A stretch of DNA of 64,000 nucleotides, taken from the IMG/VR virus record IMGVR_UViG_3300045973_000675, positions 1 to 64,000 of that record; one strand, given 5' to 3'. The DNA is from a virus. Shown piece by piece: positions 11,838-31,960 of this stretch. Numbering within the stretch: the first letter of the stretch is position 1; each line of letters begins with the position of its first letter. Position numbers and translations under genes: made by a program. Under the pieces are notes generated by a model, which made no database searches, was not told where the DNA came from, and worked only from the letters and a program-made list of their open reading frames with translations.

Positions 11838-12125
11838 CTACTCGGCGTTGACGACGATCAATTCGCGGCGATCGATGGCACCCTTGACGTCGGGGCAATC
11901 GAGGATGGTTTCGGAAAGGTCGGTCTTCTTTTCGCCGGCCAGGAAAGTGATGGACGTGGCCAATTTCGCCTCGCGCTCAGCGATCCCGGTCATTCCCGAG
12001 ACGTTGTCGTGCTCGGCCGAGTGCTGCTTGACATCGACACAGCGGCACTCGCCGTCCTCGCAGTAGAATTTATGGGGAAGGTTGAACGTCAGGAGCGTTC
12101 GAGATCGGCTCTTCAGCGTCGCCAT
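11838..12125 (-). CDS. small conserved-type pre-sheath protein
   Basis: First gene behind a late-promoter motif; HxxxC..CxC. Confidence 0.6.
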   Translation of the reverse strand: MATLKSRSRTLLTFNLPHKFYCEDGECRCVDVKQHSAEHDNVSGMTGIAEREAKLATSITFLAGEKKTDLSETILDCPDVKGAIDRRELIVVNAE

Positions 12126-12131
12126 GCCATC

Positions 12132-12163
12132 AGGATTGACGGCGCGGGCGAGCTACTCAAAAA
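12132..12163 (-). promoter_or_regulatory. late promoter motif (tail operon)
   Basis: TTTTGAGTAG-N15-AATCCT-N6-ATG. Confidence 0.7.
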
Positions 12164-12171
12164 CTGGGCGG

Positions 12172-13149
12172 CTACGTTTTGGCCACCACGTCGAGATCGA
12201 ACTCTTCTTGGGTGCCAACGCCGACGCGATCGAGGGACTGGCCCGGGAATCCGGCTAAGTCCTCGAGCCCCACGCCATGGATGACCACCGTCAGTCCGTC
12301 GAACGAATGGTTGCCGTCCTGATTGGGCGTGGACGTGTCGCGCGCCTCCGAGTCGGCTGGGACGATGACCTGGTAGCGGATCGTTCCCTTGCTGGCGTCG
12401 TTGGCGTCTCGTTGCACTTCCAGGTAGGTGAACAGATCGAGCACCTTCCGGGTGAGGAGCATCAGGCTGGTGTTCTGCGCGCCGCTGTTGGTGTAGCCAG
12501 CGATGCTGTATTCGAGCGCGACCGCCATGGGTGGCGCCTTGATGTCGACCAACCCACCGCCAAGCTGGCTCGGCACCGCGATCGGCGTGTGGGTGTTGAA
12601 GTGCGGCCGATCTTCCCTGCACCGCGGTCCCGTGACGACCAGGCCCGGAGGATTGGCCAGTCTCGTGACTGCAAATGGAGCGTCGCCGAAGTCCGGGCTG
12701 ATGGCCAGCTTGACCACGTTGTCGACGATCCGCCGCTTGAGCATCCGCAGGAACGCGCGCTCGACCCGGCCGCCATCGTTTTCGATCGCGAGATCTGGAC
12801 GCGCGTAGGTGACGGCCGCCGGCGACGTTCGCGATTCCCCGGCAATCGGCGCGCCAGCATCATCGAGATTGGTCACCGTCAGGGCCGCCGGCACCACCGT
12901 TCCGTCGTCCAGTCGGGACGGGTCATGTTCGGGAAGGTGGCAGGACAGCACGGTGCTGGACAGCACCTCGACCTGTGTCGCCGCTCGAGCTTCGACGGTT
13001 ACGGCCACGGTCGGGATTGGGTCAGGCAACGGACCGTTGGTCGGCGACGGCGGCGACGGCAAACGGAAGTTCGTGCCGCGCACGATGACCAGTTGCCCGC
13101 CGGTCCAGACGGTCGACGGTGTGATGGAAGTGATGGTTGGGGCGGCCAT
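12172..13149 (-). CDS. IPT/TIG-domain tail terminator (Pvc16-like)
   Basis: PTITSITPS...GGQLVIVRGTNF is an IPT/TIG start; C-terminal PMAVALEYSI; position before the sheath. Confidence 0.65.
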   Translation of the reverse strand: MAAPTITSITPSTVWTGGQLVIVRGTNFRLPSPPSPTNGPLPDPIPTVAVTVEARAATQVEVLSSTVLSCHLPEHDPSRLDDGTVVPAALTVTNLDDAGAPIAGESRTSPAAVTYARPDLAIENDGGRVERAFLRMLKRRIVDNVVKLAISPDFGDAPFAVTRLANPPGLVVTGPRCREDRPHFNTHTPIAVPSQLGGGLVDIKAPPMAVALEYSIAGYTNSGAQNTSLMLLTRKVLDLFTYLEVQRDANDASKGTIRYQVIVPADSEARDTSTPNQDGNHSFDGLTVVIHGVGLEDLAGFPGQSLDRVGVGTQEEFDLDVVAKT

Positions 13150-13158
13150 GTTTCGATC

Positions 13159-13797
13159 CTATTTCGAGAGGGTGCCCTTCAACATTTTCGCCATCCGTTC
13201 TTCGAGGCGCTTCTTCACGTCGTCGGGTTTGGCGAACACCTCGAAGATCGGGCGGATGAATGGGCGGGCCGGAATCTTGATGAGGAGAAACTTCTTCGCA
13301 TTCGCCTTGGCCTTGATGAGCCAGAACGGCTTGGGGATCGCGCCTTCGCCGTTGAGTTCCTTGAACACCAGGGCGAGGTACCGCATCACCTTCTTGGTCA
13401 ACTCGATCCTGAATGGCCCGGCGCCAAATTCCTGCGTCTCGGCGACGTTGACCAGCGTCTTTCCGTCGGCAGTCTTGGCCGTGCGCAAAATCCCGATGAA
13501 TGCCCCCTTGCCCTTGCCAAGGCTCTCCACGCGGATCCCGTTGCGCAGATCACCATGCACCATCAAGGCCTTGGTGCCGCGGAACCCTGCCAGCCTACGC
13601 GCTGCCAGCGTGAACGGGGACAACGGCTTGAATGCCTTCCCGCCGGGCTCCTGCGATTGTAGGCCCTTGACGATCTCACCCCGCAGGTAGTGGGCCTCTT
13701 GCAGGATGGACTGCTGCGAGGCTGCGGCCATCTCGACGGCCATTTTGTCGAAGGTCTCGCGCGCCTTGGCCCAGTCGCCTGTCTTGCGACTCGCCAC
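13159..13797 (-). CDS. virion morphogenesis/tail completion protein
   Basis: FKPLSPFTLAARR...KALMVHGDLRNGI...QEFG...IPARPFIRP. Confidence 0.8.
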   Translation of the reverse strand: MASRKTGDWAKARETFDKMAVEMAAASQQSILQEAHYLRGEIVKGLQSQEPGGKAFKPLSPFTLAARRLAGFRGTKALMVHGDLRNGIRVESLGKGKGAFIGILRTAKTADGKTLVNVAETQEFGAGPFRIELTKKVMRYLALVFKELNGEGAIPKPFWLIKAKANAKKFLLIKIPARPFIRPIFEVFAKPDDVKKRLEERMAKMLKGTLSK

Positions 13798-13799
13798 CG

Positions 13800-14303
13800 C
13801 TACGACCTCGACTGCATGCGGACCAGCAGCAAGTTGCGCCGGCCACCCAATCCAAACTGCGGCGTCGCCTCGTTGACGTACATGCCCGGCGGATCGGGAA
13901 ACTGCTGCACCAGCGTTCCGTCCATCTGATAGATGGCGCCCATCCGGTCGGCGGGGCGGATGAGCGCCACCCCAGTGGCCATATCCACGAGGCCCATCTG
14001 CTCGAGATCGACGAAGTGAAACGTCACCGCGAACACACCAGCCTTCTGGTCTCCGAGTTCCTTCATGGTCTGGCGATTGAACGAATCGGGTTCGATCTGC
14101 GCCGGAATCATGATCGAGGGAAGCTCCTCGCGCTTGGGCAGGCCGCGGCCATCGTCGGTTGCGACGAGAACAGGCTCTTTGTAGTCCGGGTCCAAGGCAG
14201 CATCAGATCCGTCTACCGTCGTCCCCTCGCCCATACCCTCCAGATCGAGCTGGAACATCTCGACTAGGAACTTTTGGAGAAGCCTGCCCCGGTATGCCAT
14301 CAC
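13800..14303 (-). CDS. head closure/stopper protein
   Basis: Position between adaptor and tail completion genes; LDPDYKEP motif. Confidence 0.6.
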   Translation of the reverse strand: MMAYRGRLLQKFLVEMFQLDLEGMGEGTTVDGSDAALDPDYKEPVLVATDDGRGLPKREELPSIMIPAQIEPDSFNRQTMKELGDQKAGVFAVTFHFVDLEQMGLVDMATGVALIRPADRMGAIYQMDGTLVQQFPDPPGMYVNEATPQFGLGGRRNLLLVRMQSRS

Positions 14304-15343: not shown

Positions 15344-15384
15344 GTGGCGCTCTTTCTCACCCGTCCCAAAGGAGGGCGGGCGCT

Positions 15385-15951: not shown

Positions 15952-15991
15952 GTCTTCTAACCCCCGTTGAAAACCCGTGAAGAAACGTCGA

Positions 15992-16330: not shown

Positions 16331-16360
16331 TGCTGTTCTCCTGAATCAGGTTGAAAGGTT

Positions 16361-16380
16361 AGGGGCGAATTTCTCCGCCC
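16361..16380 (-). terminator. stem-loop after the major capsid gene
   Basis: GGGGCGGA-GAAA-TTCGCCCC followed by TAACCTTTC; weak terminator or mRNA stabiliser. Confidence 0.55.
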
Positions 16381-16400
16381 CACAAATTTGGTTCGGTCGA

Positions 16401-17348
16401 CTACGCGGACTTGACCTTCACGGCCTTCGCTACCGCGGGCTCGTGGAGGTACTTGACCGCGACGCGCGCCCGGCAGACCACCATCAGGACACCAGCCTGG
16501 ATGTCTTCCTGGGTCTTGAACGTGACGTCCTTCCAGACGCCGACGCAGATGTTCTTGGGATCGCAGAAGATGATGTTCGATTCGTTCGTTCCACCACCGA
16601 GGTTGGTCGGGAACATCGGAACCGGGATGACCTGCACCCCGTAGGCCGGGATGGGGGCTGCCGACGTCAGGGCGCTATCGCCGAGGCCGGTGAAGCGCGG
16701 GGCAACGAGGTCGCGCCACTTGGTCTCGATGGTGGGCGCCGTGTAGAAGCGCATCTTCGACTTGTCCTTCTGGAACTGGCTGGGCAACAGGTTCGCCAGG
16801 TGGAGGAAGTGCGCTTGCGCGAGGACGATCGAACCGTCGTCGACCACGTAGGTGCTCGACTGCTTGAGGATGCCGTCGAGCAGCTTGAGCAGAGGATCCG
16901 TCGACGTGGTGTCGCCGTTGATGGCGAGGTCTTCCATGTCGAGGCCGAAGCGCTCGCCCATGAGCTTCTTGACGTGCGTCGCGAGGGCATCGCCTTCGAT
17001 GTTGTCCTCGATGTCGACGTCGGTCAGGTTGACCTGGCACTTCATCTGGACCGTGGTCAACGTGACCTTGCCCGTGGTGGGGGCCGCACGATCGGTGTAG
17101 CTGAGGGACTGACCCTCGACACCGCCGCGGGTGATGCGCGACAGGAAGCCAAGCTTGTCGACCTCCTGGACGGGCGCCGACAGTGGCTTGAAGAAGACGT
17201 CCTTCAACAGACGCTGGTCCTGGATCGAAATCTCCAAGAACTCTTTGGACTGGGCCGGAAGGAGCACGCCGCCATTGGTGGTCATGTCCGAGACCTTCAT
17301 GTCCGCCTTCTGGATGTTGGTACGGGCGATTTGTCGGTTCGATTCCAT
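16401..17348 (-). CDS. major capsid protein (HK97 fold)
   Basis: GGVLLPAQSKEF, IEDNIEG, DMEDLAINGDT..DPLLKLLDGILKQ, FCDPKNICVG. Confidence 0.95.
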   Translation of the reverse strand: MESNRQIARTNIQKADMKVSDMTTNGGVLLPAQSKEFLEISIQDQRLLKDVFFKPLSAPVQEVDKLGFLSRITRGGVEGQSLSYTDRAAPTTGKVTLTTVQMKCQVNLTDVDIEDNIEGDALATHVKKLMGERFGLDMEDLAINGDTTSTDPLLKLLDGILKQSSTYVVDDGSIVLAQAHFLHLANLLPSQFQKDKSKMRFYTAPTIETKWRDLVAPRFTGLGDSALTSAAPIPAYGVQVIPVPMFPTNLGGGTNESNIIFCDPKNICVGVWKDVTFKTQEDIQAGVLMVVCRARVAVKYLHEPAVAKAVKVKSA

Positions 17349-17383
17349 CTGATTGCTCCTTGGGGTCGTTGTCGTTGCGAAAA

Positions 17384-18070: not shown

Positions 18071-18080
18071 GGTCTATTTC

Positions 18081-18111
18081 AGGGTTGCAAGCGGAATCGA
18101 CGTAATCAAAA
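18081..18111 (-). promoter_or_regulatory. late promoter motif (scaffold/capsid operon)
   Basis: TTTTGATTAC-N15-AACCCT-N10-ATG. Confidence 0.6.
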
Positions 18112-18112
18112 A

Positions 18113-18805
18113 TCAGTCGAGTGGGTTGACGACGGCGGTCCCGCCAATCGAGAATCCGGTGATTTCGCCCTTCTTGATGGCGGACCACATGTCATCGTCC
18201 AGCACCCTCTCGGCCATCATCCAAGACCCGGCCTTGAGGAATTGCCCCTCGTAGGTCTCGTCTGACTTTTGGATGTAGCACTCCAGCACGGCGAACTTGT
18301 CGTTGGAATCGAGCACCTTGCCGTCCTTGGTACGCGCGTGCTGGACGGTGAAGTGCCCCGCCTCCCCATCGGTTCGGTACGCCTCCATCCAAGCCTGCTG
18401 TGCCTTGCGAATGGTCGCCGACGTCTCGGTGTGGCCCTGGGTGTCGACCTCGTCTGGTTCCATGACGACGCCCAGGACGTAGCGCTCTTCCTCGGCAGTC
18501 TCGGCCTTGGAAACGATCACGCGGGCGAACTTGAGCGTCGGAGATGGCTCGACGGGCGTGACGGTCGGCGGCGGTTCAGATGGCGCGGTGGCCTTCTGGA
18601 TTGCCACCACAATCGCCTTCGCAAGCGTTGGGTACATTCCTCCATCGCCCATCGATGCCATCGCCTTGCGGGTCTCACCGCGCACGCGCAGCTTGACCAC
18701 GACGTCCTGGTAGTCGTCGGTAGCGGTAGTGGCAGCGGCGATCACAGGGGAGGTCACGGATGCCGTCTTCGCGATAGGCTCTCTGAATCGCCGGCTGCGC
18801 TTCAT
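18113..18805 (-). CDS. XkdF-like prohead serine protease
   Basis: EERYVLGVVMEPDEVDTQG, QH, GSWMM, WSAIKKGEITGFSIGG. Confidence 0.9.
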   Translation of the reverse strand: MKRSRRFREPIAKTASVTSPVIAAATTATDDYQDVVVKLRVRGETRKAMASMGDGGMYPTLAKAIVVAIQKATAPSEPPPTVTPVEPSPTLKFARVIVSKAETAEEERYVLGVVMEPDEVDTQGHTETSATIRKAQQAWMEAYRTDGEAGHFTVQHARTKDGKVLDSNDKFAVLECYIQKSDETYEGQFLKAGSWMMAERVLDDDMWSAIKKGEITGFSIGGTAVVNPLD

Positions 18806-19884: not shown

Positions 19885-20946
19885 TCAGAAGACCGGGATG
19901 ATGGTTGTCCGGCACGACCCGTGGTAGGGCGGCATGCCGATCCCAGCCTTCATCATGGTCTCGCTGGCCATGGCCTCGGAGTAGGTGCCGATCTTGTCCT
20001 TCACGCCCTCGCCGGGCTCATCGATGACAGCCACCGTGTGGGAGCGGGTGCCCCGCTTGTAGTAGAGGATGTCCTGTCCATCGTCGTTCTTGCCCTTCTG
20101 GATCCAAGGCATCTGGTCGACGATGCTTTCGGGATCGTCGCTCTCCTGAACCTGCTTGATTCGCTTGACCGACTTGTCGACCGGGAATTGCTGACCGTTG
20201 AGGAATCTACATGTTTCCGATGTAACCTCGTCGAGGATCGCGCTTGGCGAGTAGGCGCGGATCCCAGCATCGTCGAGCGCGTGGACCTGGGTGAAGTTTC
20301 GCGCCCGGTTCGAGAAGGTTGTGGCGGTGAAGTTCCAGTAGGCATCCGACCGCTTGGCCGCCTTCATGGTGATGGCCAACTCTTCCGAGATGTCGTCCCG
20401 CCCAAGGCCCTTTTCGAGCCCAGCGGCCACGATGTCCCGCGCCTTGGTGGACAGGCGTTTTCCGATCTCCCCGTAGTTGTTGCGCACGAATAGCGCGCTG
20501 GTCTCGCGCAAACTTTCGGCGGTATCGAGGTCTCGCTTGGTCAGATCCGTCTCGATCGCCAGGTCGTACCGTTTCACTAGTTGCTTGCGGGTCGGCGGGA
20601 TGATCTGGTCGGCGCTGATCTCAAACGTGGCCCGCAGTCCCGGCAGCTCCTTCTCGCCGGACGCCGCCAACAGCTCTTCGATCTCGTGCATCTTCGCCGT
20701 GCGCTTGGCCGCGGACATCTCGGGCCAGTTGGCATCGACGATCTGGGCGGCCTCATCGGCGGTGGCGTTCTCGATCGGAGCAACCTTGGCCCGCAGTGCC
20801 CTGGCCACCCGGCGGACCATGGTGACGAACTGCACCGGATGAAGCGGGTTCAGCGCCTTCTCGATGGGGACGCGTAACACATCATCAAGGAGCCAGTCGG
20901 CTGCCTCGACCCCGGCTTGCAGCGTTTCACCGCAGCGGTCGCACAC
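19885..20946 (-). CDS. head morphogenesis/minor head protein (SPP1 gp7 / Mu F)
   Basis: AILDEVTSETCRFLNG...PPYHGSCRTTIIP. Confidence 0.9.
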   Translation of the reverse strand: MCDRCGETLQAGVEAADWLLDDVLRVPIEKALNPLHPVQFVTMVRRVARALRAKVAPIENATADEAAQIVDANWPEMSAAKRTAKMHEIEELLAASGEKELPGLRATFEISADQIIPPTRKQLVKRYDLAIETDLTKRDLDTAESLRETSALFVRNNYGEIGKRLSTKARDIVAAGLEKGLGRDDISEELAITMKAAKRSDAYWNFTATTFSNRARNFTQVHALDDAGIRAYSPSAILDEVTSETCRFLNGQQFPVDKSVKRIKQVQESDDPESIVDQMPWIQKGKNDDGQDILYYKRGTRSHTVAVIDEPGEGVKDKIGTYSEAMASETMMKAGIGMPPYHGSCRTTIIPVF

Positions 20947-20949: not shown

Positions 20950-22830
20950 CTACGTCTCCGTGATGAAAGGGGCCAGCTCGGAAGCGGGCACGCGGATGAC
21001 CTGCTCGTCGTCATCGCTCGATTGCTTGTGGACTGCGAATTCCTTGGCCGCACTATCCTGCTCGGCAGCCAGCACGCTCTTTCGAATGGCGACGAGGTGC
21101 TTGGCCATGGCCACGATGTTGCCCTCCTGACGTGCCTTCTCAGCTCCGGCAAGGTTATCGGAGATGCCAAGCCCACCGCCGCCGGCGGCGCCCGCCAGCG
21201 TGAGGGCGAACGGTTCATCCCCGCCATCGACAGGCTTGTAGTCGCGGCCGAACACGTCCTCGGCCACGGCGCGAATCTCGTTTCGGCTGAGGGCGTTCTC
21301 GAACTGCTTCGCCGCCAGGGCCAGTGCTTCGGGATTCTTGAGGTCCGCTCCCAGCGACTCGAATTTGTAGTAGCGGATCCCGAGGTCGGTCAGGATGGTG
21401 CGATCCATCAAATAGTCGAAGGCGTTGCGCTCGCCCGAGAAGACCTGCTGTTCGGCGAATGCCAGGGCAGCGTCGGCTGTAGCCCTATTTACATCGCTGG
21501 AATCGCCGCGAAGAATCTTGGGAAGCCGAAACGACTCGCCGATCTTGTTTCGGTTCCGCTCGTCGTACTCCATGAACAGGCCATCCTTCAGGATGGCGTC
21601 GGTCAGGGGTTGGATCTTGATCCGCACCTTCCCGTCGGCGGTCGTGCCGGTGGAGTTCTCGGCCGGCATCGCCTCGAGGATGATGGCCTTGTGGAAGTTG
21701 CGCGCTCCCCTGATCTTGTTCTCGATGAAATCCTTGAACGCCTTTACCGATTGGCTCGATAGCCTGCCGCCTTCAATCAGCACTGCCATCGGCGGGATCG
21801 ACTTGTTGTCGAAGAACAGATAGTTGATGTACTCGGCCTTTCGACTTCCCTGGACGGACAGGTAGTTGCCAATCCAGCGCGGCAACCCGTAGGGGCCGGT
21901 CGGATTGTAGAGGGCATCGCACCACAGCTCGGTCGCCTCCATGGTGGTGGGCTCGGCTGCCATCATGGCATCGACGCAGGCTTGGCGATCTTTTCCCGCC
22001 TCGTAAAGCGTCCCTGTCTTTACGCTCATCACGCGCGTGTCGCCGAACTCCTTGAAGTACGCCGGGATGCCCTCGCAGAGTTGGATGTAGCGGCGAAAGC
22101 GGCGCCACTTCAAGATCGTTCTGGTCGTGATCGGTGAGATGCGAACTGGCACCGAAACCTTGATCCATGGCCCACGCTTGAGCATGCGAATCGTGTACGA
22201 CGGGACGTGCCTTAGCTCGGCGATCTTCCTCAGTCCGTTGCGGATGACCTCCCAGTAGCCGCTGCCGTTCGTCTCCTTGTCGTGCCGCGATCTCCGCCGC
22301 AGCTCCACAAACGAATATTGGTCGGTGCAGTAGTCGAAGAACGAGGTGATGCGCGCCAGCTCCTTGCGCATCTCGGACGCGACGATAGCTTTGCGCTGGG
22401 CCACTTCAGCCGACGTGGGCTCGGGCGGGTCGGGCTGGGTATCGGCGCCGGACGCTTCTTCCATGGCATCCAATCGTTCCAGATAGATGACGTCGGCGAT
22501 TTTCTTGTCCGCGTCCTCTTTGGTCAGGTCGATGATGGGGACGAAGCGATGACCGAAACCGTCGCAGTTGGTGACGTATGAGTGCACGCACTGGGGGAGG
22601 ATGTTGGACTCCTCGACCATGCGGCCGAGCAGCTCGGGTGGATAGGGGGGCACGAGCGCCCCTGCGTCGCCGAACATCCCGGCGATACGCTTGTCCTCTT
22701 CCTCGCGGACATTGCTCGGCGGCGCATCGTCGTAGCTGATGACGTGCATCTTGGTGATGGCGGTGCGGTCGTTGTCCGCCACCTCTTCGTCGTCGTCGAC
22801 CTTGGCGATCGCTTTCCCTTCGTCAGCCAT
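20950..22830 (-). CDS. portal protein (PBSX type)
   Basis: DKETNGSGYWEVIRN, YGLPRWIG, FFDNKSIP, IGESFRLPKILRG...NRATA. Confidence 0.93.
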   Translation of the reverse strand: MADEGKAIAKVDDDEEVADNDRTAITKMHVISYDDAPPSNVREEEDKRIAGMFGDAGALVPPYPPELLGRMVEESNILPQCVHSYVTNCDGFGHRFVPIIDLTKEDADKKIADVIYLERLDAMEEASGADTQPDPPEPTSAEVAQRKAIVASEMRKELARITSFFDYCTDQYSFVELRRRSRHDKETNGSGYWEVIRNGLRKIAELRHVPSYTIRMLKRGPWIKVSVPVRISPITTRTILKWRRFRRYIQLCEGIPAYFKEFGDTRVMSVKTGTLYEAGKDRQACVDAMMAAEPTTMEATELWCDALYNPTGPYGLPRWIGNYLSVQGSRKAEYINYLFFDNKSIPPMAVLIEGGRLSSQSVKAFKDFIENKIRGARNFHKAIILEAMPAENSTGTTADGKVRIKIQPLTDAILKDGLFMEYDERNRNKIGESFRLPKILRGDSSDVNRATADAALAFAEQQVFSGERNAFDYLMDRTILTDLGIRYYKFESLGADLKNPEALALAAKQFENALSRNEIRAVAEDVFGRDYKPVDGGDEPFALTLAGAAGGGGLGISDNLAGAEKARQEGNIVAMAKHLVAIRKSVLAAEQDSAAKEFAVHKQSSDDDEQVIRVPASELAPFITET

Positions 22831-23166: not shown

Positions 23167-24564
23167 CTACTCGAAGGTCGTCTCGGCGGCGTACCCGTCC
23201 AGGAACGTCGTCCAGAAGTCCATCGGGATGAACGTCGTCTCTCCTGTTTGGCTATCCAGGAAAAACGTGTCGTAGTCGGTCTGCTCGAAGGTCGTGTCAG
23301 CAGCGTAGCCGTCCAGGAACGTCGTCTCGGATTCAACGGTCGTACCGTACTGCGGGGTTGAGGCGTGTGCATCCGCTGACTCGGCGCTGGCTTCCGCCTC
23401 CGACGTGGAAGCGGAAAAACTTGCTCCCGCGTTCGCTTGCTCAAGCTCTGCCTCGGATTCTCCGATCCCGACCGCTCGAACCGCGGTGGCGGAGACTTGC
23501 TCGGATGACGTTTCCGATTCAGACATGGACGCCGTGACCAGGCGCCCAGCCACGATCTGTTCAGATTCCGATTCGGACTCGGCCGCTGCAACGGTCGCGG
23601 CCTGCACCTGTGACGTCTGTTCCGATTCAGCTATGGAATCTGACGCGGATACCACAGCGACGCGTGCTACAGCGGCTGTCTCGGTTTCAGCTTCCGATTC
23701 GGCCACGTTGGCGGATAGGGCCAGTCCCCCCGATATCTGCTCGGATTCGGTCTGTGCTTCACCCACCGCGACCGTTGCTGCCGTTGCCGCGGATGCCTGT
23801 TCGACCTCGGATGCAGATTCGGCGAGCCCGACTACCCGCGCGGCAGACGCGCCAACGCCTTCCGCTTCTCCCTCCGATTCGCTCACGTTGGCCGTGAAGG
23901 ACAGTCCCGCCGCGACTTGCTCCGCTTCTGCTGTAGCCTCCGCCACCCCTGCCGTTGACGTCGCGGCAGTCGCGACCTGCTCGGCTTGGGCCTCGGCTTC
24001 CGAGACGCCGGCCGCGGCCACCGTTGCCGCCCCGGCGATTTCCGTTAGGCCTTCCGACTCCGCGACGGGCGCCGTGAACACGAGTCCCGTGGCCACCTGC
24101 TCTGCTTCAGCTTCGGATTCGCCGACAGTCGCAGTCGTGACCCGCGTGGCGGACGCCGATTCAGCTACGGCTTCTGCATCGGCTACGCCCTGGGTAAACG
24201 ACGCGCCTGCCCCGATAGCCTCAGTCTCCGATTCCGATTCAGCGACGGAGGGGCGCAGCGTTGTAGTCGTCGCGGTCGCCTCAGCTTCGGCCTCCGACTC
24301 TGCAACGGACGCGGACAACACGAGCCCGGTTGTGACCTGCTCGGCCTCGGCTTCGGATTCGCTGACCGCCCCTGTGGTGGCGCGCGAAACGGCCGCCGAC
24401 TCTGTCTCTGCCGCTGACTCTGCAACTCCAGCACTCGCCGACGTCTGGGCCGCAGTTCCCTCCCCTACCGCCTCGCCCTCTGCAACGTTGGCCGTGTAGA
24501 GCGTAGAAGAACCAGCATCGAACGCGTCGGCCTGGAATGCGTCCGTCTGGAACGCTTGCGCCAT
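23167..24564 (-). CDS. acidic 20-aa tandem-repeat fibre-like protein
   Basis: About 19 repeats of V[AS]ESE[AST]E[AT]E-x; N-terminal AFQxDAFQ; C-terminal TTFLDGYAA repeats. Confidence 0.8.
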   Translation of the reverse strand: MAQAFQTDAFQADAFDAGSSTLYTANVAEGEAVGEGTAAQTSASAGVAESAAETESAAVSRATTGAVSESEAEAEQVTTGLVLSASVAESEAEAEATATTTTLRPSVAESESETEAIGAGASFTQGVADAEAVAESASATRVTTATVGESEAEAEQVATGLVFTAPVAESEGLTEIAGAATVAAAGVSEAEAQAEQVATAATSTAGVAEATAEAEQVAAGLSFTANVSESEGEAEGVGASAARVVGLAESASEVEQASAATAATVAVGEAQTESEQISGGLALSANVAESEAETETAAVARVAVVSASDSIAESEQTSQVQAATVAAAESESESEQIVAGRLVTASMSESETSSEQVSATAVRAVGIGESEAELEQANAGASFSASTSEAEASAESADAHASTPQYGTTVESETTFLDGYAADTTFEQTDYDTFFLDSQTGETTFIPMDFWTTFLDGYAAETTFE

Positions 24565-24567: not shown

Positions 24568-27072
24568 CTACCCAGGTACTGCCGAGAGCATTGCTAGGTA
24601 GGGGGCGCTCGCGACCATGACCGCTCCAGTGGGCCATTTCGGCCCGAAGGCGGCGTTGGCCTGCCCCGTGAGCTTCCATCCTACCGGACCCAACACACCC
24701 GAGAAAGGCAATCCCGTCGTGGCAAGTGTTGGCATGTCGGGAACGGGGCCGTCGATCTGTCGAAGAATCGGAACCGTGGTGGGAGCGACGTTGATCTTCA
24801 TGACCAACCAGTACAGGCCCGGGTCGAGTTCCAGGTCATTTAGTCCGGTGGCCGACTTAAACGCCGCAGTTGTTCCAACGGCAACGCCGGCGCTCTTCTC
24901 GCTCATCAGCGTACCGGGCTGACCAGGCGAGCAAGCATCGTCGGCAAAGATGGCCAGACGCACGGTGGTCCCAGTGGTGGGCGCATTCGTGCACTCGAAG
25001 CCAATCGCTGTGAATCGAGTGCTCCCCTGCGTGATCCGAAAGGGCACAGCAAAAGTGTCACCAGCCACACATGTGTACGTGGCTGCTGAGATTCTCGCAC
25101 CGGGGGTATGGTAGTAGTTGCCGGGTCTAACCGTGTACTGAACGGCGCCACTTGCAGCAGGGGATCCCGCCATGCAGGCCGCGTTTCCGTAGCTGGAAGC
25201 CGGTGGCGCGAGGCGATTGAACGCGTCCACCAACGCCTGTGCCGCCTTGACCGCCCCGATCTCATTGTAGTGTAGGCCCGCAGGTGCGTTGGGCGAGTAG
25301 CAAAGATCGACTGCCCCAATGGCGCCATCGCAGTCCGCCTCTTGGACCATCGAATCGAATTCGCCGATCAGGCTGCGAAGGGCGATGTTCCAATTCAAAA
25401 CGTCCGTGTCTCGATTTGCTCCGGTGTTCGACGTTGCCTTCCACGGAGCGTAGAACGATGCCGCGTCGATGGCGGCGTGACCGATGGCGCTCAAGCGCGA
25501 TAGGCTGCAGACGATGACCGGCGAGGGCGAAAGCGATTCAAGCCACCACGAATCGAAGGACACGTTGCCGCTGGCATCCACAGAGGACACGGTTCCGATG
25601 ATCGTTTGCGTGGCGCCTGTGACCGGGGCTGTGTAGCGCACGATCACCGGGCAGGTGACGGCGTCAGCTGCGGCCTTGATGTTCGAGCACGAAAGCGTGC
25701 CAGTGAGCCCGGCGGTTCCGGACCATGTGACCACCCCGCCCACGACGCCTGGGCGCCCGATCAGGCAAATCGCGATCTTCTCGCCCTTGTAGTCGGCGGG
25801 AATCGTAATCGTGAACGTCGCCGACGTGGTCGTGGTGGAGTTGCGAAGCGTGCCGGTCGTGCTGCGGCCTTCCTGCGCCGTCAGGGCGGTCATGCCAGCG
25901 CCGTAGGCAACAGATGCGTCCGCGTTGTCCCGCACCGTCGAGGCTCGGCAGCGGCTGATCGCAAATCTCATTGCGTGGATGAATGCCGTCTGCGACTGCG
26001 CGGAATTTCCGTAGTTTCCGAGGTCGTTCAAACCAAAGCAGAGCAGGTGTCCGCCGCCGCTGGCGGTGTAAGGCGTCGTCTTCGCGGTGGTCTTGGTACC
26101 CCTGTACTGCGTGCCAAACGCGACTGCGTGCCATCCGCCGAGTCCATTCTGAATGAGGCCGTCGGCCGTAATGCGTGAACCGTTGACCGCTCGGTTGGTC
26201 CAGTCTAGAGTCGAAAATCCCAGCATCGAGCGTGCGAGGGCGTCGAAGCGTCCCGTCTGATCGTAGGTCGCAACGCCATTCATGAAGTACGAATGTCCCC
26301 ACGCCGTCCACTGACGAACCGCGAGCTGAGCAAGCTGCGCCGGCTTGTTCATGATGTCCGGCTCCCACGCCCCTGGCGCAGTCGCAATCGACGTGGCGTT
26401 GACGTAGAGGTTCTCGCCAGGGCGAACAAAAGCAATGAACCCGCCGCCATTGGCGTTGACCGTGACGACTCCAGACCCGGTCGTGAGGTTGTCGATCTCG
26501 TAGGCCCAATCCGCGAACGGAAGTGTGTTGGCCGCGGGCAGGATAACCGTTTGCGCTGTTATTCCCGATCCAGTCAGGATGAGCTGGCGCGGACTTGCGT
26601 TCGTGAGGGTTGTGGTTCCGCCCGACATCGCGACGGTCTGTGTGCCCTGCGGCTGCACCAAGAGCGCAAGCTGCGTCTCCGCCACATTCGATGCGACCAC
26701 GTGGGGACTCTGCAATCCCCACACGCCGGCCGCCTCGTCGATGAGCACGCACCAGTCCGAAACCCCGCTGAGGACAAACGAGGTCGCGCCTCCGATGGTG
26801 TCCGCGCCCGAGCGATTCAGTGTCACGATGCCCGCGCCGAGCATGCAGACGAAGATCGGCTTACCCGATCCGGTCGCAGCCGGGACCGTGACGGCGTAGG
26901 TCCCCGCGGCCAGCGTCACCGCGTCGTCAGCAAGCGCGATGGTGTCTGCGCCCGAGATGGCGTGCTTGGCGTAGTCCAGCGAGTGGGTTGCGTTCCAATT
27001 ACTCGGACGTACAAGGGTCGCGTCGGCCCCATCGGCCTTCCCCGATACAAATGGATGTGTTACCGATGGCAT
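24568..27072 (-). CDS. fibre/spike protein with SGNH-esterase-like domain
   Basis: N-terminal LVRPSNWNATH; GHSY, GLND and GLHYNxxG blocks resemble SGNH motifs; beta-rich C-terminus. Confidence 0.7.
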   Translation of the reverse strand: MPSVTHPFVSGKADGADATLVRPSNWNATHSLDYAKHAISGADTIALADDAVTLAAGTYAVTVPAATGSGKPIFVCMLGAGIVTLNRSGADTIGGATSFVLSGVSDWCVLIDEAAGVWGLQSPHVVASNVAETQLALLVQPQGTQTVAMSGGTTTLTNASPRQLILTGSGITAQTVILPAANTLPFADWAYEIDNLTTGSGVVTVNANGGGFIAFVRPGENLYVNATSIATAPGAWEPDIMNKPAQLAQLAVRQWTAWGHSYFMNGVATYDQTGRFDALARSMLGFSTLDWTNRAVNGSRITADGLIQNGLGGWHAVAFGTQYRGTKTTAKTTPYTASGGGHLLCFGLNDLGNYGNSAQSQTAFIHAMRFAISRCRASTVRDNADASVAYGAGMTALTAQEGRSTTGTLRNSTTTTSATFTITIPADYKGEKIAICLIGRPGVVGGVVTWSGTAGLTGTLSCSNIKAAADAVTCPVIVRYTAPVTGATQTIIGTVSSVDASGNVSFDSWWLESLSPSPVIVCSLSRLSAIGHAAIDAASFYAPWKATSNTGANRDTDVLNWNIALRSLIGEFDSMVQEADCDGAIGAVDLCYSPNAPAGLHYNEIGAVKAAQALVDAFNRLAPPASSYGNAACMAGSPAASGAVQYTVRPGNYYHTPGARISAATYTCVAGDTFAVPFRITQGSTRFTAIGFECTNAPTTGTTVRLAIFADDACSPGQPGTLMSEKSAGVAVGTTAAFKSATGLNDLELDPGLYWLVMKINVAPTTVPILRQIDGPVPDMPTLATTGLPFSGVLGPVGWKLTGQANAAFGPKWPTGAVMVASAPYLAMLSAVPG

Positions 27073-27099
27073 GGCTGCTCCGGGACGAGCGATGCCTGA

Positions 27100-27738
27100 T
27101 TACGTCAGCGTGATCGTGAACGTGACCGCGAGCTGGTCGCCGACCTGTAGTGACCGCTGTGTGAAGGCCAGCACGTGGTGCATGGTCCCGGCACTGGAAG
27201 CCGAGAAGAGCGCGGCCTTCTGCGCCGACTGTGCCCCGGTCGAGCACGTGAATGTCTTCGAGATCGTTGCGGTACTGGCACCCGCTGAGTGGGCATAGGC
27301 TCCGATTGCCCTCGTCAGTCCGTTGGCCGCAATCTCGGTCGATAGCGTGGTGCTGGCCGTGGTCTCGGTCAGGGTGTCATTGGAGAGCGCGATGTAGTTG
27401 AGCCCGTTCGCCTGTGCGCTGGTCCCGTAGGTCTGGGCGAATGTGAAGTCGATCCCCGCAGTGGTCTTGACGTTGTAGACGGTGTCGGATCCGATCACCT
27501 TGCACCCGGTGTGCTTCACCGGGTTCGCGCAGCGGATGTGCTGGATGACGCCCTTGGCTCGGTGGACCTGCACGGCGTCGGAGGTCTGGGTGTTGGCCGT
27601 AAATCCCGTGGTTGCCCGCTCTCCCGCGCTGACCACGTCACGGGTTGCGCTGAGTCCGAGCAGGGGGTTGAGTGCGGCGCCCAGTACCAGGGCGCAGAGG
27701 ATGGCTGCGAAATTGACGATTCTGCTTTGCTGTCTCAT
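27100..27738 (-). CDS. fibre-base-type structural protein with N-terminal signal peptide/TM
   Basis: Start ATG 27738 (SD GGAG): MRQQSRIVNFAAILCALVLGAALNPLLGLSA; C-terminal YIALS..TTLSTEI..KAALF..GDQLAVTFTITL domain common in phage structural modules. Confidence 0.75.
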   Translation of the reverse strand: MRQQSRIVNFAAILCALVLGAALNPLLGLSATRDVVSAGERATTGFTANTQTSDAVQVHRAKGVIQHIRCANPVKHTGCKVIGSDTVYNVKTTAGIDFTFAQTYGTSAQANGLNYIALSNDTLTETTASTTLSTEIAANGLTRAIGAYAHSAGASTATISKTFTCSTGAQSAQKAALFSASSAGTMHHVLAFTQRSLQVGDQLAVTFTITLT

Positions 27739-27740
27739 GG

Positions 27741-28061
27741 TCACTCCAAAATGAAAAGGTTCAACGGAACCCCGCGGGCGACTCCCCCGCCGGGCAAATC
27801 CAGGTGTGGATACAGACGGTAACGGCCGGGCTGCGCGGTCTCCAATCCCAGGGCGTCGAACGTGTGGACCATGGTCGCGACGTCCATGGCAGCCGCCGCG
27901 ATGATGGCGGGCCACACGACCTCGTCGCCGTTCTCGGCCCGCACGATAAAGTGGCATGCGGTCCCGGTCGTGGCGTCGAAGGTGCTGCCCGCCTTGCGGT
28001 GAACGCGCACGGTCAGCGACTCGGGAGCGAGCGCCCCGGCGTAGATTGAGATCGATGCCAC
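27741..28061 (-). CDS. BppU-N-like small structural protein
   Basis: VVWPA...HTF...QPGRYRLYPHL pattern; GTG start 6 nt after a promoter -10. Confidence 0.6.
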   Translation of the reverse strand: MASISIYAGALAPESLTVRVHRKAGSTFDATTGTACHFIVRAENGDEVVWPAIIAAAAMDVATMVHTFDALGLETAQPGRYRLYPHLDLPGGGVARGVPLNLFILE

Positions 28062-28067
28062 CCACCG

Positions 28068-28098
28068 AGTGTCGGGCGTGGTGGCGCGCTACTCAAAA
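28068..28098 (-). promoter_or_regulatory. late promoter motif (fibre cassette)
   Basis: TTTTGAGTAG-N15-GACACT-N6-GTG. Confidence 0.7.
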
Positions 28099-28106
28099 GC
28101 GGGCGG

Positions 28107-28457
28107 TTAGGCGCGGGCCTTCTCCGCCCAGTGCCGCTCGGCCTCGTCCACCACCGCCACCAGCTCGGCGAAGAACAGGTCGCCCAGCTTCTTGGACAGC
28201 GCTGTCTTGCCGGCGTCGGCGACGGTTGCGGGCACGTGGATCGCCGAATGCCCGGCCGCCAGCCACCGCTCGTCCAGGGCCTCAAAGATGGTCTCCCACT
28301 CGGCCTCGGTCAGCTCGGGCTTCTCGCGCCGGCAGATCTCAGCGTAGCGCTCGACACACGCCCGGATGACCTCGGAGCGCGTGCCTGGCCCGACCTCGCG
28401 CGCGGCAAGGATCGCCTGGGTGTCGGGGTCGAGGTAGATGCTGGTCTTCTTTGGCAT
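28107..28457 (-). CDS. ribbon-helix-helix DNA-binding protein
   Basis: KKTSIYLD...TRSEVIRACVERY. Confidence 0.65.
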   Translation of the reverse strand: MPKKTSIYLDPDTQAILAAREVGPGTRSEVIRACVERYAEICRREKPELTEAEWETIFEALDERWLAAGHSAIHVPATVADAGKTALSKKLGDLFFAELVAVVDEAERHWAEKARA

Positions 28458-28470
28458 GCTCTTCTTCCTT

Positions 28471-29832
28471 TCAACCAATGACCGTGATCCCGACCTCGCC
28501 GCGCACCTTCACCTTCTCAAGCATCAATTCGGTGAGGGCGATCGTGTTGGCATCGATTCGATCTGGGCTGTCTCCCTGGGTTGGATCCCACTGCGTCTGC
28601 TGGTCCTCGAGCCGCGACAGCACCCCCACGTGGTGGCACTTCCCCTGCTCGTACAGGTTTGAGATCGGCTCGTGGCGCATCTGCTTGCCGCGGCTGGCGT
28701 GCACGCCCTTGTAGGAAATGTTCTCGCCGCCCTCGGTGGCGCGGACGTTCCGCTCGACCATGTCGCCTCCCTGGTTCACCTCGGCCACCACCAGGTCGGC
28801 CATGTATTCGTCGTATGTGTCGACGACTATGCGGCCCCACTTCTCGGGCTTGTAGATGCCGCTGCGGTCCTCGAACACGAACCCGTGGATCTCGCGCGCG
28901 CCACGGCACTTGCACCAGGCGGTGCCGGCACCGATGATGCCCGTCTCGTCGCTCTTCTTCTTGGCCGTGATGGCCGGGTCGACCGCCACCACGACCCGAA
29001 TGAAGTCCTGCGGCATTGCCGAAACCCGCAGGTCGTCGATCTTCTTTTGCAGCCACAGGGCGTTGGGGTTGTCGGTGAGGATCTCGGCGAAGATCTCCTG
29101 TCGTCCGAGCCTGGTGCCGTCGTATCGCCGCTTGAGCTTGGCCAGGTACTTGGTCGGCAGATTGCCGGCGTTTTCGTAGGTGCTGCCCCAGTGGGTGATG
29201 CTTTCGGGGTCGGACTCCAGGTCGCGGAGAAACTTCAACGGCCGCGGCGAGCTGGTCACCAGACAGCGCGCATCGCGCATGCGCAAGCCGAACTGTAGGT
29301 TGTCCCAAGAGTCGTCGAGGTAGCGCCAGTGCGCGAGCTCATCGCACCAGGCGGTGTCGTATTGGGGACCGCGGAGTGAGCGGGGCTCGTCGGCGGAGAA
29401 GGTCGTGGCAGTGGCGCCGTTGGGCCAGGTGATGCGCCTCTTCGAGGGCTCGTACGTCGGCCGGAACCACGGCGGCGAGATGGCGAGGATCCCGCTCGGG
29501 CCCTCGACCATGACGTCGCGCACGTCGGCGGCCGTGGGCGCCACCAGGGCGATGTTGCGAGCGCCCTGCTCTTCCACCCGCATGCGGACCCACTCCGCTC
29601 CGGTGAGGGTCTTGCCCCAGCCGCGGCCGCACCGGCAAATCCAGGTCGACCAGTCGCCGTCGGGCGGCAGTTGTTTGGTGCGCGCCCTGAATTTCCAGTC
29701 GTAGGCGGCGCGGAGCTTGTAGTCTTCGTCCTCGACTTCGTCCCACCACGCGTAGAACTTCTCGGGCCCGCCCATCGACATGATGGCCAGGTCGAGGTTG
29801 GAATAGTCGATACCGGATACCAGTTCCGGCAC
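28471..29832 (-). CDS. terL: terminase large subunit
   Basis: GRGWGKT Walker A, LRGPQYDTAWCDE Walker B, VVAVDPA, SPDRIDA nuclease motifs; start taken as GTG 29832 just after the terS stop. Confidence 0.95.
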   Translation of the reverse strand: MPELVSGIDYSNLDLAIMSMGGPEKFYAWWDEVEDEDYKLRAAYDWKFRARTKQLPPDGDWSTWICRCGRGWGKTLTGAEWVRMRVEEQGARNIALVAPTAADVRDVMVEGPSGILAISPPWFRPTYEPSKRRITWPNGATATTFSADEPRSLRGPQYDTAWCDELAHWRYLDDSWDNLQFGLRMRDARCLVTSSPRPLKFLRDLESDPESITHWGSTYENAGNLPTKYLAKLKRRYDGTRLGRQEIFAEILTDNPNALWLQKKIDDLRVSAMPQDFIRVVVAVDPAITAKKKSDETGIIGAGTAWCKCRGAREIHGFVFEDRSGIYKPEKWGRIVVDTYDEYMADLVVAEVNQGGDMVERNVRATEGGENISYKGVHASRGKQMRHEPISNLYEQGKCHHVGVLSRLEDQQTQWDPTQGDSPDRIDANTIALTELMLEKVKVRGEVGITVIG

Positions 29833-29834
29833 GG

Positions 29835-30275
29835 CTACTTTCGGTGAGGCGTGGCCTCGTCCTCTTCTTCCTCTTCCTCTGCGGCCTTGGCGTTGGCTCG
29901 CTTGACGTCCTCGCGCGCCTTCGTGGCGAGGTCCGACAGGAACGAGGTCAGGGGATTTTCGCCGGTGTCGACCTTGCCGCTGACGTGCACCTTGTCCGGA
30001 ACCTTGCCGTAAACCCGGTAGTACCAGACCTCGATCGCCTTCATGCAGTCCTTGCGCCGGCGGTCGATTGCAATCATGTAGTGCGTGCGCATCACAGTAT
30101 CGTTGCGACACGGCAGCGCGGCGCCGTTCTTGTCGACGCCCGGACTCTCCAGCGCGAACTCCTGCCAGTCCTTGCGGGTGGGCTCGTCGGGCTTCTTCTT
30201 CGGGCGGCCGTTGATGTTGCCGCTCTGGCCCTTCTTGAAGGACTTGAGATTTGCGAGACTGCGGGCGGATGCCAT
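29835..30275 (-). CDS. terS: terminase small subunit (DUF5681-like N-terminus)
   Basis: NLKSFKKGQSGNINGRPK, RVYGK; directly upstream of terL. Confidence 0.8.
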   Translation of the reverse strand: MASARSLANLKSFKKGQSGNINGRPKKKPDEPTRKDWQEFALESPGVDKNGAALPCRNDTVMRTHYMIAIDRRRKDCMKAIEVWYYRVYGKVPDKVHVSGKVDTGENPLTSFLSDLATKAREDVKRANAKAAEEEEEEDEATPHRK

Positions 30276-30297
30276 GCCTCTAGCTTCGATCCGCTAC

Positions 30298-30329
30298 ACG
30301 CCGGGCACGAAATCCGTCCCGGCGTTTTG
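30298..30329 (+). terminator. GC stem-loop between the ParB-like gene and terS
   Basis: ACGCCGGG...CCCGGCGT followed by TTTG on the + strand. Confidence 0.45.
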
Positions 30330-30342
30330 TACCAGCGATGTG

Positions 30343-30804
30343 CTACCCGCCTTGGTCAAAGCCAGGCCCGCTCATGATCTCGAACATGCTGACCTCGTGA
30401 AGCTGGGCCACGGCATCTTCCGTGAACTCGCCTTGGATCTCGGGATTGTTGGCGACCAGGTTGCCGAGCCGCTGCTTGGTGGCATCCCAGTCGACGAACC
30501 GCACAGGGAAGCGATCGCCGGTCTTCGGGTGCACGATGTAGCCAGTCTCGCCCTCGCGCACGACCTCGGTGGCGCCCGCCTCCTTGAGTTGTTTGATGCG
30601 CTGGTGGCCCGACACCAGTTCGCTGGTGCGAATATTGAATGTGATGTCGAGAGGGCCGAAAGTCTCCATGCTGACGCCGAGGCCGACCGCCGCCGTGCCC
30701 TTCATCTTCCGCGGGTTCCTCGGGTCTGGCGCCAGTGCCGCGATGGGTAGAACGTCCCTCACTGGTTCGTCACTGTTTTTGATTCCGGCCTTGGTCTTGC
30801 TCAT
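30343..30804 (-). CDS. stand-alone ParB/Srx N-terminal domain protein
   Basis: LAPDPRNPRKM...SMETFG...LVSGHQRI...NLVANN..IQGEF. Confidence 0.85.
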   Translation of the reverse strand: MSKTKAGIKNSDEPVRDVLPIAALAPDPRNPRKMKGTAAVGLGVSMETFGPLDITFNIRTSELVSGHQRIKQLKEAGATEVVREGETGYIVHPKTGDRFPVRFVDWDATKQRLGNLVANNPEIQGEFTEDAVAQLHEVSMFEIMSGPGFDQGG

Positions 30805-31595
30805 GGATTCGATTCCGCTCTCCGGTTCCGGATGTTCACCTCTTGCAGCGCCTGCGCTTCAAGCTGCCGCGCCCGCTCCAGTGTCAACCCCAGCTTCGCC
30901 CCCACAACTTCGAGCGGCAGCACCTTCGGGTCTCGCCCTACCCGCCCAGCCTCGCGTTCGGCCACATCCTGCGCGCACGTGTCGGCGAGCTCCGCCATGT
31001 TCTCGGGCCGCACCTTCGGGTGATTGAGCTTGATCGAGCCGCAGTCCTTGACCTCCAGGTACAGGTGTCGACGGCACCTGGCCCACACGCACGGCCGGCA
31101 GCGGTTCCTCGCCCGCATGGGGATCTCGTCGGCGTTGTAGATAGCGGTCCGGTTGCCCGTCCCCAGGTCCAGCCGGCACCACGACCACTCCCCGCCCTTG
31201 CCTTGCCTGTACCCGACGATGCCTCGGCACTCTGGGCAGGAAATGCGCGACGTCTCGCCCTCGCTCCCCTGAACGGTCGTCACCTGCATGGCCACCTTGG
31301 AGCGGCACCACGGGCATTCGCGGTCGCCCGCACAGTCGCCGCGCATCTTGGGGTAGCCGGCGTCCCACCCACGGGGTAGCGCCACCCACGATGAGCGCTC
31401 GGCCCGCGTGGCCTTGCCCGGGTGCAGAGAGCGGCGAACCTTGCCGGCGCCGGGCGACGCCGCGTCTTCCTGTTCCTCTTGGTCGAGGTCGATATCGATC
31501 CACCAGTACAGGGTGGGGCGCTCCGCTGACCCGAGCGGCTTGAGCTTTCGGCGACGGTGGTTGTGGCGCTCGGGCGGCGAGGAGTGCCGACACAT
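30801..31595 (-). CDS. Cys-rich sigma70-region-4-only transcription factor (candidate late activator)
   Basis: RPCVWARCRRHLYLEV..GSIKLNHP...TCAQDVA...LEVVGAKLGLTLERARQLEAQAL, with an inserted CxxC..CxxC; SD GAGGAGG. Confidence 0.75.
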   Translation of the reverse strand: MCRHSSPPERHNHRRRKLKPLGSAERPTLYWWIDIDLDQEEQEDAASPGAGKVRRSLHPGKATRAERSSWVALPRGWDAGYPKMRGDCAGDRECPWCRSKVAMQVTTVQGSEGETSRISCPECRGIVGYRQGKGGEWSWCRLDLGTGNRTAIYNADEIPMRARNRCRPCVWARCRRHLYLEVKDCGSIKLNHPKVRPENMAELADTCAQDVAEREAGRVGRDPKVLPLEVVGAKLGLTLERARQLEAQALQEVNIRNRRAESNP

Positions 31596-31663
31596 GACCG
31601 CCTCCTCCTCCACCCCATTCGTGAATTGGGATAAGCAGCGCTGCTGGTAGCTGATCTCGGAGA

Positions 31664-31924
31664 TCACGCCACCCCTTCGGCGGCCGAGGCCTCGCGCTTG
31701 GCCAGCTCTTCCCTGATGAGCGCAAGGCTTCCCCTCCCCACCGGCATGCCGGCCAGGGCCGCGCACAGGGTATTGCCCGAGACACCGAATGCACCGAGTG
31801 CCCGTCGGCTCGTCTGGCCCGCTAGGGCTGTCCTGATGCGCGCCTGTAGCTCCGCTGGCGCAGGGATGGCCGCTCTCGTGTTGCCTTCCGGTCGTCTGCA
31901 TGTTTGTTCAACTTTCAGATGCAC
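31664..31924 (-). CDS. small HTH-like protein
   Basis: RRALGAFGVSGNTLCAALAG; starts 7 nt after a promoter -10. Confidence 0.5.
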   Translation of the reverse strand: MHLKVEQTCRRPEGNTRAAIPAPAELQARIRTALAGQTSRRALGAFGVSGNTLCAALAGMPVGRGSLALIREELAKREASAAEGVA

Positions 31925-31931
31925 GCACTTC

Positions 31932-31960
31932 AGGGTTGAACGGACTGGCTAGGTTCTCAA
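31932..31960 (-). promoter_or_regulatory. related promoter upstream of HTH/sigma4/ParB/terminase genes
   Basis: TTGAGA-N17-AACCCT-N7-GTG. Confidence 0.5.

Follow-up and report, generated by a model that had tools for sequence, protein, structure and literature searches.

Background

The late promoters of phages Mu and P2, which depend on C/Mor and on Ogr, respectively, serve several transcription units and combine a weak core with a conserved upstream or overlapping element; the activators of both phages bind dyad-symmetric sites that lie upstream of, or overlap, a poor −35. Other conserved elements include the cluster A stoperators, which match the operator of the early promoter and number 20-30, and the start-associated sequences (SAS) of cluster K mycobacteriophages, which are conserved before start codons, abut the start codon, and include a ribosome-binding site. 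In the Thermus phages YS40 (phiYS40) and Lalka27a, most transcripts, among them those from middle and late promoters, are leaderless. The late promoters have a distinct consensus, which in Lalka27a combines TAGGGT as the −10 with a C conserved at −25 (bioRxiv 10.64898/2026.04.20.719267). Here we describe a bipartite motif shared by five intergenic gaps in the virion gene region of the phage contig IMGVR_UViG_3300045973_000675, of which the first 64 kb (64,000 nucleotides; hereafter the window) were analyzed. The five sites are probably internal late promoters, from which the first gene of each virion module would be translated as part of a leaderless mRNA.

The sites resemble those of the Thermus phages in that their consensus is distinct from host and early promoters and the 5′ end, here a predicted one, coincides with the A or G of the initiator codon. 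In the Thermus phages, the specificity of the host RNA polymerase is presumed to be changed by a phage factor, and a comparable factor may act here. The two cases differ in that leaderless mRNAs would serve only the first gene of each module rather than most genes, and in that the present example is known from sequence alone. Unlike Lalka27a, the phage described here has a strong −35-like box that spans 11 bp, a −10 without T(−12), and a host that probably belongs to the Myxococcota; the five sites do not show the combination of TAGGGT with C at −25, and would thus be alike in their working without being members of that class. Because leaderless late transcription is already documented in YS40 and Lalka27a, the present sites would not be the first of their kind; what appears unusual is the extended −35-like box and an informative pattern across lineages. 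Literature searches on myxophage late promoters and on leaderless mRNAs in Myxococcus yielded no paper.

As in Mu and P2, several late units would each possess a weak core promoter with a conserved element. However, the conserved element here is an asymmetric one that in itself looks like a good −35, and the mRNAs would lack leaders. The sites share with housekeeping sigma-70 promoters, and with the early promoters of the same phage, a −35 beginning with TTG, a 17-bp spacer, A(−11), T(−7), and a +1 predicted about 7 nt downstream. Unlike housekeeping promoters, they have a −10 of the form RAYCMT rather than TAnnnT, and conservation extends beyond the −35 on both sides, by 2 nt upstream (a T-run) and by 3 nt downstream (AGC).

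Structure and distribution of the shared motif

Five gaps in the virion region, each 42-47 nt long, carry the motif on the minus (coding) strand (Table 1). Every gap has the same layout: the upstream stop codon, 1-10 nt, an 11-nt box, 14 non-conserved nt, a −10-like hexamer, a short stretch, and the start codon. The exact 11-mer TTTTGAGTAGC is common to three of the boxes, with TTTTGGGTTGC and TTTTGATTACG in the other two. The initial annotation had described a 10-mer, TTTTG(A/G)(G/T)T(A/T)(G/C), followed 15 nt later by a hexamer RAYnnT and, in four of the five gaps, by a start codon exactly 6 nt further on that lacks a Shine-Dalgarno sequence (SD). These observations hold throughout: all five 10-mers are present on the minus strand at the positions it gave, the hexamer follows at the same distance at every site, and the four starts so placed are 12125, 19837, 23121, and 28061.

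When re-parsed, the motif reads TTGAGT-N17-nAnnnT-N6-start, which is the geometry of a sigma-70 promoter. The −35-like hexamers are TTGAGT (three sites), TTGATT, and TTGGGT, in which TTG is invariant; these match TTGACA at four, four, and three of six positions, respectively, as is acceptable for a −35. The spacer is exactly 17 bp at all five sites, within the 17 ± 1 bp range. All five −10-like hexamers have A(−11) and T(−7), and none has T(−12), an A or G taking its place. Conservation is confined to blocks 31-41 and 7-12 nt upstream of the start; the 6 nt adjoining the start are not conserved, and comparison of the spacer across the five sites found no conserved position. What varies from gap to gap is the stretch from the upstream stop codon to the box, whereas the distance from box to start is fixed, and the element therefore appears anchored to the downstream gene.

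The motif is strongly enriched over expectation. TTTTGRKTWS has 6 matches in the window against 0.58 expected, a count reached in none of 100 shuffles, and TTGRKT-N17-RAYNNT has 7 against 0.64 expected. A position weight matrix (PWM) scores the five sites at 25-30 bits; the best other position among ~158,000 scores ~14 bits, the level of shuffled-genome maxima, such that no other position in the 79-kb contig rises above noise. When the PWM was rebuilt leaving out one site at a time, each withheld site ranked directly after the four training sites and ahead of all positions outside the family. A general repeat finder, run independently, also detects the family (D16/D20). Every one of the five sites falls in intergenic sequence on the coding strand, an arrangement with a chance of ~3e-7 given that 9.9% of the genome is intergenic. 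Within the contig, the PWM places the family nowhere but in coding-strand gaps of the virion region.

The related sixth copy reported at 31932-60 is a doubtful member. The sequence is present as described, but its PWM score is at noise, and it lies inside a ~450-nt stretch (31596-32044) at the early/late boundary with no convincing coding potential. Coding potential is likewise poor from 31901 to ~31600, and the ATG at 31595 has a strong GGAGGAGGAGG SD. The gene behind this copy most likely starts at ATG 31595 and not at 31901, so that a transcript from it would carry a ~330-nt leader and the copy would not be a leaderless member. Two further matches were not counted. The sixth TTTTGRKTWS match, at 2268-2277, has no −10-like second box. 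A plus-strand match at 45154-45184, TTGAGTAG-N..-GACCCT, is intergenic but lies on the opposite strand, upstream of an attP-like tRNA-Arg half; it scores no higher than noise with the PWM and is probably due to chance.

Predicted late promoters and leaderless mRNAs

In promoters of the sigma-70 type, +1 lies about 7 nt past the −10. In four of the five gaps, 6 nt separate the hexamer from the start codon, and +1 is therefore predicted on the start codon itself. Under the reading that we consider probable, a holoenzyme of the sigma-70 family would read the sites, with TTGAGT, inside the longer asymmetric box TTTTGAGTAGC, acting as −35 across a 17-bp spacer, and with the hexamer (A/G)A(T/C)C(A/C)T acting as a degenerate −10 in which A(−11) and T(−7), both essential, are retained. 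The first transcribed base would be the A or G of the ATG or GTG, and the first gene of each virion module, having no SD, would be translated from a leaderless mRNA; for the scaffold gene behind site P18111, the predicted 5′ end at ~18074 would leave a leader of ~4 nt. Later genes of each module would be translated through ordinary SDs.

The arrangement of the genes is consistent with this. A check of the five gaps found no SD before any of the five starts; SDs are present at other late genes, including AAGGAG at the major capsid protein (MCP) gene and AGGAG or AAGGAG at the 112-aa, tube, and 227-aa genes. The sites stand at module boundaries, namely before a cassette between the large terminase (terL) and portal genes, before the portal/minor head genes, before the 110-aa gene to protease module, before the scaffold/MCP/connector genes, and before the sheath/tube/tail genes. 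Coding scores, from a codon-usage model trained on long genes, are positive for all five open reading frames behind the sites. The GTG gene at 27741-28061 is real and distinct from the SD-led gene downstream of it (27100-27738); the latter, with the SD-led genes 24568-27072 and 23167-24564, makes up the terL-portal cassette.

The early promoters of the phage (Table 1) are canonical, with TTGACA −35 elements, leaders, and SDs, and the late set therefore forms a distinct class characterized by a good, extended −35 and a −10 without T(−12). From the missing T(−12) and the extended box, as compared with TTGACA/TAnnnT at the early promoters, we infer that the late sites may depend on a phage factor that appears late. 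The motif also appears to be phage-specific: TTTTGAGT-N18-A-N3-T occurs in 0-3 copies per genome in five putative host genomes against 0-1 for a reversed control, and a host promoter class was ruled out on account of this rarity. An intrinsic-terminator reading of the sites was likewise rejected, as no hairpin precedes the T-run and folding energies equal those of shuffles. A terminator scan found none at the sites or between modules, with RNA upstream of T-runs folding as shuffles do. Read-through transcripts may therefore coexist with internal ones.

The proposal of the initial annotation that each virion module has its own promoter and a leaderless first gene is thus upheld in part. The geometry, the placement at module boundaries, the lack of SDs, and the comparative data below agree with it; the scaffold gene, with its predicted leader of a few nucleotides, and the unconvincing sixth copy do not fit it fully. 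The activator dependence that it also proposed may apply, and the distributed late programme that it set against a single antiterminated transcript might operate alongside read-through between modules.

If this reading is correct, the virion genes would be divided among at least five transcription units, and each first cistron would be translatable only from its own unleadered mRNA, coupling transcriptional timing directly to translation. A strategy mapped so far in Thermus phages would then extend to a probable Myxococcota phage.

Several results weigh against this reading. A generic sigma-70 scan calls none of the five sites, the hexamers being C-rich and poor as −10 elements when taken alone. 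The predicted leaderless mRNAs show no reduction in structure over their first 40 nt relative to other genes. GTG, the start codon at 28061, is an inefficient leaderless initiator in some bacteria. A 400-kb sample of putative host sequence shows a weak leaderless signature, with TAnnnT at 6 nt in 6/194 genes. The sequence occurs in one DNA run, from a pond metagenome that is possibly its source, and no RNA run is listed for it. Finally, the retention of a 9-11 nt box in one relative at 66% identity, described below, is suggestive and not decisive.

Comparison with related phages

No close relative of the phage was found in INPHARED or IMG/VR. Comparison with a close relative rests on one independent genome, locus L091, whose MCP is 65% identical and whose coding DNA is ~66% identical; a second candidate, L215, found through a DNA pattern of motif plus gene, was discarded as the same phage as L091 (100% identity). 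Better relatives known as proteins are P0014, P0001, and P0004, the last at 61% and encoded on a contig of 72.7 kb; scans with single proteins did not recover them.

L091 covers two of the five gaps, and these are its two top PWM matches. The orthologue of the gene at 11838-12125, which begins with MATLK as in the window, is preceded at L091:6372 by TTTTGAGTCCC, N14, GAACCT, N6, and ATG, such that the spacer is 17 bp and the geometry identical. At L091:436, after the protease stop, TTTTTGAGTGG is followed by CACGCT at 18-bp spacing, with 13 nt to the scaffold ATG; in this gap the box is kept and the remainder is unrelated to that of the window. Box and promoter-type geometry are therefore kept in both comparable gaps, with spacings of 17 and 18 bp.

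A deeper comparison drew on the 50 nt before the starts of orthologues in ~170 distant loci with MCPs 30-45% identical. Among orthologues of the 110-aa gene, a canonical TAnnnT ending 5-8 nt before the ATG, without an SD, appears in 7/27 distinct loci (0.65 expected, as taken from other offsets), in the variants TAGGCT, TAGTCT, TACGCT, TAGCGT, and TACGGT. The same placement is found in 11/65 orthologues of the adaptor gene, against 1.55 expected. Orthologues led by an SD account for 123/143 of those of the MCP, 31/34 of the sheath, and 19/20 of the tube. One distant locus, L095 (MCP 42% identical), has an element of its own, in which the palindrome GCAACGATCGTTGT is followed after 0-2 nt by TAGGCT, N7-8, and ATG, with no SD; it occurs at 529, 3760, and 11913, with a weaker copy at 18409, before the portal gene, the 110-aa orthologue, and one further gene.

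These data suggest that a leaderless-type placement of the −10 recurs at the same genes within the group, and that the upstream recognition element is specific to lineage. Such a pattern, which may be the more general point of the present comparison, is predicted if the sites are promoters and is not predicted if they are repressor sites or RNA signals.

Alternative explanations

The boxes could instead be sites for a phage DNA-binding protein, such as a stoperator-like repressor or a nucleoid or packaging factor, with the −10-like hexamer being incidental. Like stoperators and SAS, the sites are short, asymmetric, orientation-specific repeats (here an 11-mer) in the short intergenic gaps of virion genes, and the phage is temperate, with an integrase, an attP-like tRNA-Arg half, and a divergent switch region. 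However, the PWM finds no copy of the box at the immunity and early-promoter regions (61-66 kb), where the primary operator would be expected, and the palindrome that does occur in that region differs from the box in sequence; this absence argues against a stoperator-like repressor. Stoperators come in many copies and include the operator, whereas only five boxes are present in 79 kb and none is an operator copy. A binding site alone would also leave unexplained the 17-bp spacing, the 6 nt to the start, and the missing SDs, as well as the TAnnnT-N5-8-ATG that relatives without the box have at the orthologous gene, and we regard this explanation as unlikely. Alternatively, the motif might act in the RNA of one long late transcript, as a site of processing (an RNase E-type cut in the U-rich box would be one example) or as a translation signal replacing the SD. 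The lack of terminators between modules makes a long transcript plausible, the distance from box to start is fixed, and the SAS of cluster K offer a precedent for conserved sequences before start codons. Yet in the present gaps the 6 nt next to the start, where SAS elements lie, are not conserved, and there is no ribosome-binding site and no SD-like or other purine-rich element; conservation is limited to the two upstream blocks. No conserved secondary structure was found, nor any Rfam family at gathering thresholds. A bipartite layout with a non-conserved 14-nt spacer fits DNA recognition by sigma, and the TAnnnT seen in relatives is a −10 signature at the DNA level, so that action in RNA seems distinctly improbable.

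Least credible is an origin of the gaps as recombination remnants, copies of one 'linker' sequence that illegitimate or homologous exchange carried to the borders of mosaic modules and that now lack a regulatory role. The sites do flank exchangeable modules such as the terL-portal cassette, and two of them share 33 nt at 76% identity (repeat D20). Both boxes and every distance are nevertheless preserved across differing spacers, as selection, and not recent copying, would produce, and L091 retains the box where the rest of the gap has diverged; we consider this origin very improbable.

A candidate recognition factor

If the five sites are promoters, the asymmetric 11-bp box, which contains TTGA, could be read by a monomeric protein combining a CCCH motif with sigma-70 region 4, for which the phage encodes two paralogous candidates (Table 1). 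Both share an invariant C-x6-C-x4-C-x2-H motif and a sigma region-4.2 helix-turn-helix, and both carry the −35-contacting recognition helix (TRERIRQ) of primary sigma factors. Cellular homologues of ~178 aa pass the Pfam Sigma70_r4 threshold and are commonest in Myxococcota; they are present in all five putative host genomes, at 63-65% identity to the phage proteins. More than 550 homologues were identified overall, and at least 157 viral contigs encode one. No sigma-70 region 2 is encoded on the contig.

These proteins are candidate readers only. One version of the idea, in which phage proteins with sigma region 4 only, and not the host primary sigma alone, would read the box and supply or replace −35 recognition at promoters with a weak −10, appears quite unlikely on present data. 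The motif is not enriched where the factor occurs: in 80 viral loci with CCCH-sigma-4 homologues the PWM has 8.5 matches/Mb, versus 9.2 in control loci. The gaps of the former loci show a faint excess of nAnnnT at 5-7 nt. An AlphaFold model of the 130-aa protein, built from a 15-sequence alignment, had a pLDDT of 50 and was too poor to use. Were this version true, leaderless late mRNAs would be switched on by a mechanism new to phages, split sigma or sigma appropriation, to which the host might also resort. If the sites are promoters, the 45-nt gaps offer concrete fragments with which to test myxobacterial RNA polymerase and the unexplored CCCH-sigma-4 family.

The phage and its probable host

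The contig, from an uncultured phage, is linear, 79,144 bp long, and 78% complete according to CheckV, with a GC content of 62% and nearly all genes on the minus strand. Gene identities in the virion region were assigned with PHROGs, which further identify adaptor, neck, tape-measure, and baseplate genes. The sheath, tube, tape-measure, and baseplate genes identify the phage as a myovirus, and the integrase together with the divergent switch region identifies it as temperate.

The integrase gene lies at 45593-46597, and an attP-like 3′ half of tRNA-Arg(ACG) is found nearby on the minus strand (~45316-45370). This region includes a 35-nt exact match to the 3′ part of tRNA-Arg(ACG) genes in eight metagenome-assembled genomes, seven of which are labeled as Myxococcales, Deltaproteobacteria, or delta proteobacterium and one as Proteobacteria bacterium; no genome labeled with any other phylum carried the 35-nt match. 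The host is thus probably a member of the Myxococcota. A search of the five putative host genomes with the portal protein recovered no related prophage.

Table 1. Positions of the five sites, the genes behind them, and other features of the contig
Feature	Position	Strand	Details
Site P28098	28068-28098	(-)	Box TTTTGAGTAGC 28098-28088; TTGAGT 28096-28091; 17-nt spacer; GACACT 28073-28068; 6 nt; GTG 28061
Gene behind P28098	27741-28061	(-)	106 aa; GTG start; no SD; no assigned function
Site P23158	23128-23158	(-)	Box TTTTGGGTTGC; TTGGGT; 17-nt spacer; GACCAT 23133-23128; 6 nt; ATG 23121
Gene behind P23158	22834-23121	(-)	95 aa; no SD; portal gene 3 nt later, then minor head protein gene
Site P19874	19844-19874	(-)	Box TTTTGAGTAGC; spacer; GACCAT 19849-19844; 6 nt; ATG 19837
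Gene behind P19874	19505-19837	(-)	110 aa; no SD; then 227-aa gene and prohead protease gene
Site P18111	18081-18111	(-)	Box TTTTGATTACG directly after protease stop; spacer; AACCCT 18086-18081; 10 nt; ATG 18070
Gene behind P18111	17384-18070	(-)	Scaffold (PHROGs); then SD-led MCP gene and connector genes
Site P12162	12132-12162	(-)	Box TTTTGAGTAGC; spacer; AATCCT 12137-12132; 6 nt; ATG 12125
Gene behind P12162	11838-12125	(-)	95 aa; begins MATLK; then sheath, tube, tape-measure, and baseplate genes
'Sixth copy' (doubtful member)	31932-31960	(-)	TTGAGA-N17-AACCCT; PWM score at noise
Large terminase (terL)	28471-30111		PHROGs
Portal	20950-22830	(-)	PHROGs
SPP1-gp7-like minor head protein	19885-20946	(-)	PHROGs
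Prohead protease	18113-18805	(-)	PHROGs
HK97-type MCP	16401-17348	(-)	PHROGs
Tail sheath	10243-11829	(-)	PHROGs
Tail tube	9754-10233	(-)	PHROGs
Candidate trans-factor	36990-37382	(-)	130 aa; CCCH + sigma-70 region-4.2 helix-turn-helix; recognition helix LTRERIRQIE
Paralogue of 130-aa protein (C-terminal part)	30801-31595	(-)	40% identical to 130-aa protein
Early promoter	61697-61670		TTGACA-N16-TAATAT; leader + SD
Early promoter	46725-46698		TTGACA-N16-TATGGT; leader + SD
Early promoter	before gene ending at 64321		TTGACA-N17-CATACT; leader + SD

Additional features of the late region and beyond

Within the terL-portal cassette, the SD-led gene at 27100-27738 (minus strand) encodes a 212-aa late protein with a hydrophobic, signal-peptide-like N-terminus (MRQQSRIVNFAAILCALVLGAAL...), and the 465-aa gene at 23167-24564 (minus strand) contains degenerate repeats with a period of 60 nt (20 aa) and has no family match. 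Just past the MCP stop, at 16331-16400 on the minus strand, there is a GGGGCG-N8-CGCCCC hairpin, and a similar hairpin occupies the same place in L091; it may be a stabilizer or attenuator of the MCP transcript. Beyond the window, at 74507-74560 and 74913-75000 (G000), near-identical stretches of ~45 nt precede two adjacent paralogous small genes. These stretches read AGGCGCCGAACTTGTGG(C/T)CACGCGGACC..., end at the ATG without an SD, and may represent another promoter type.

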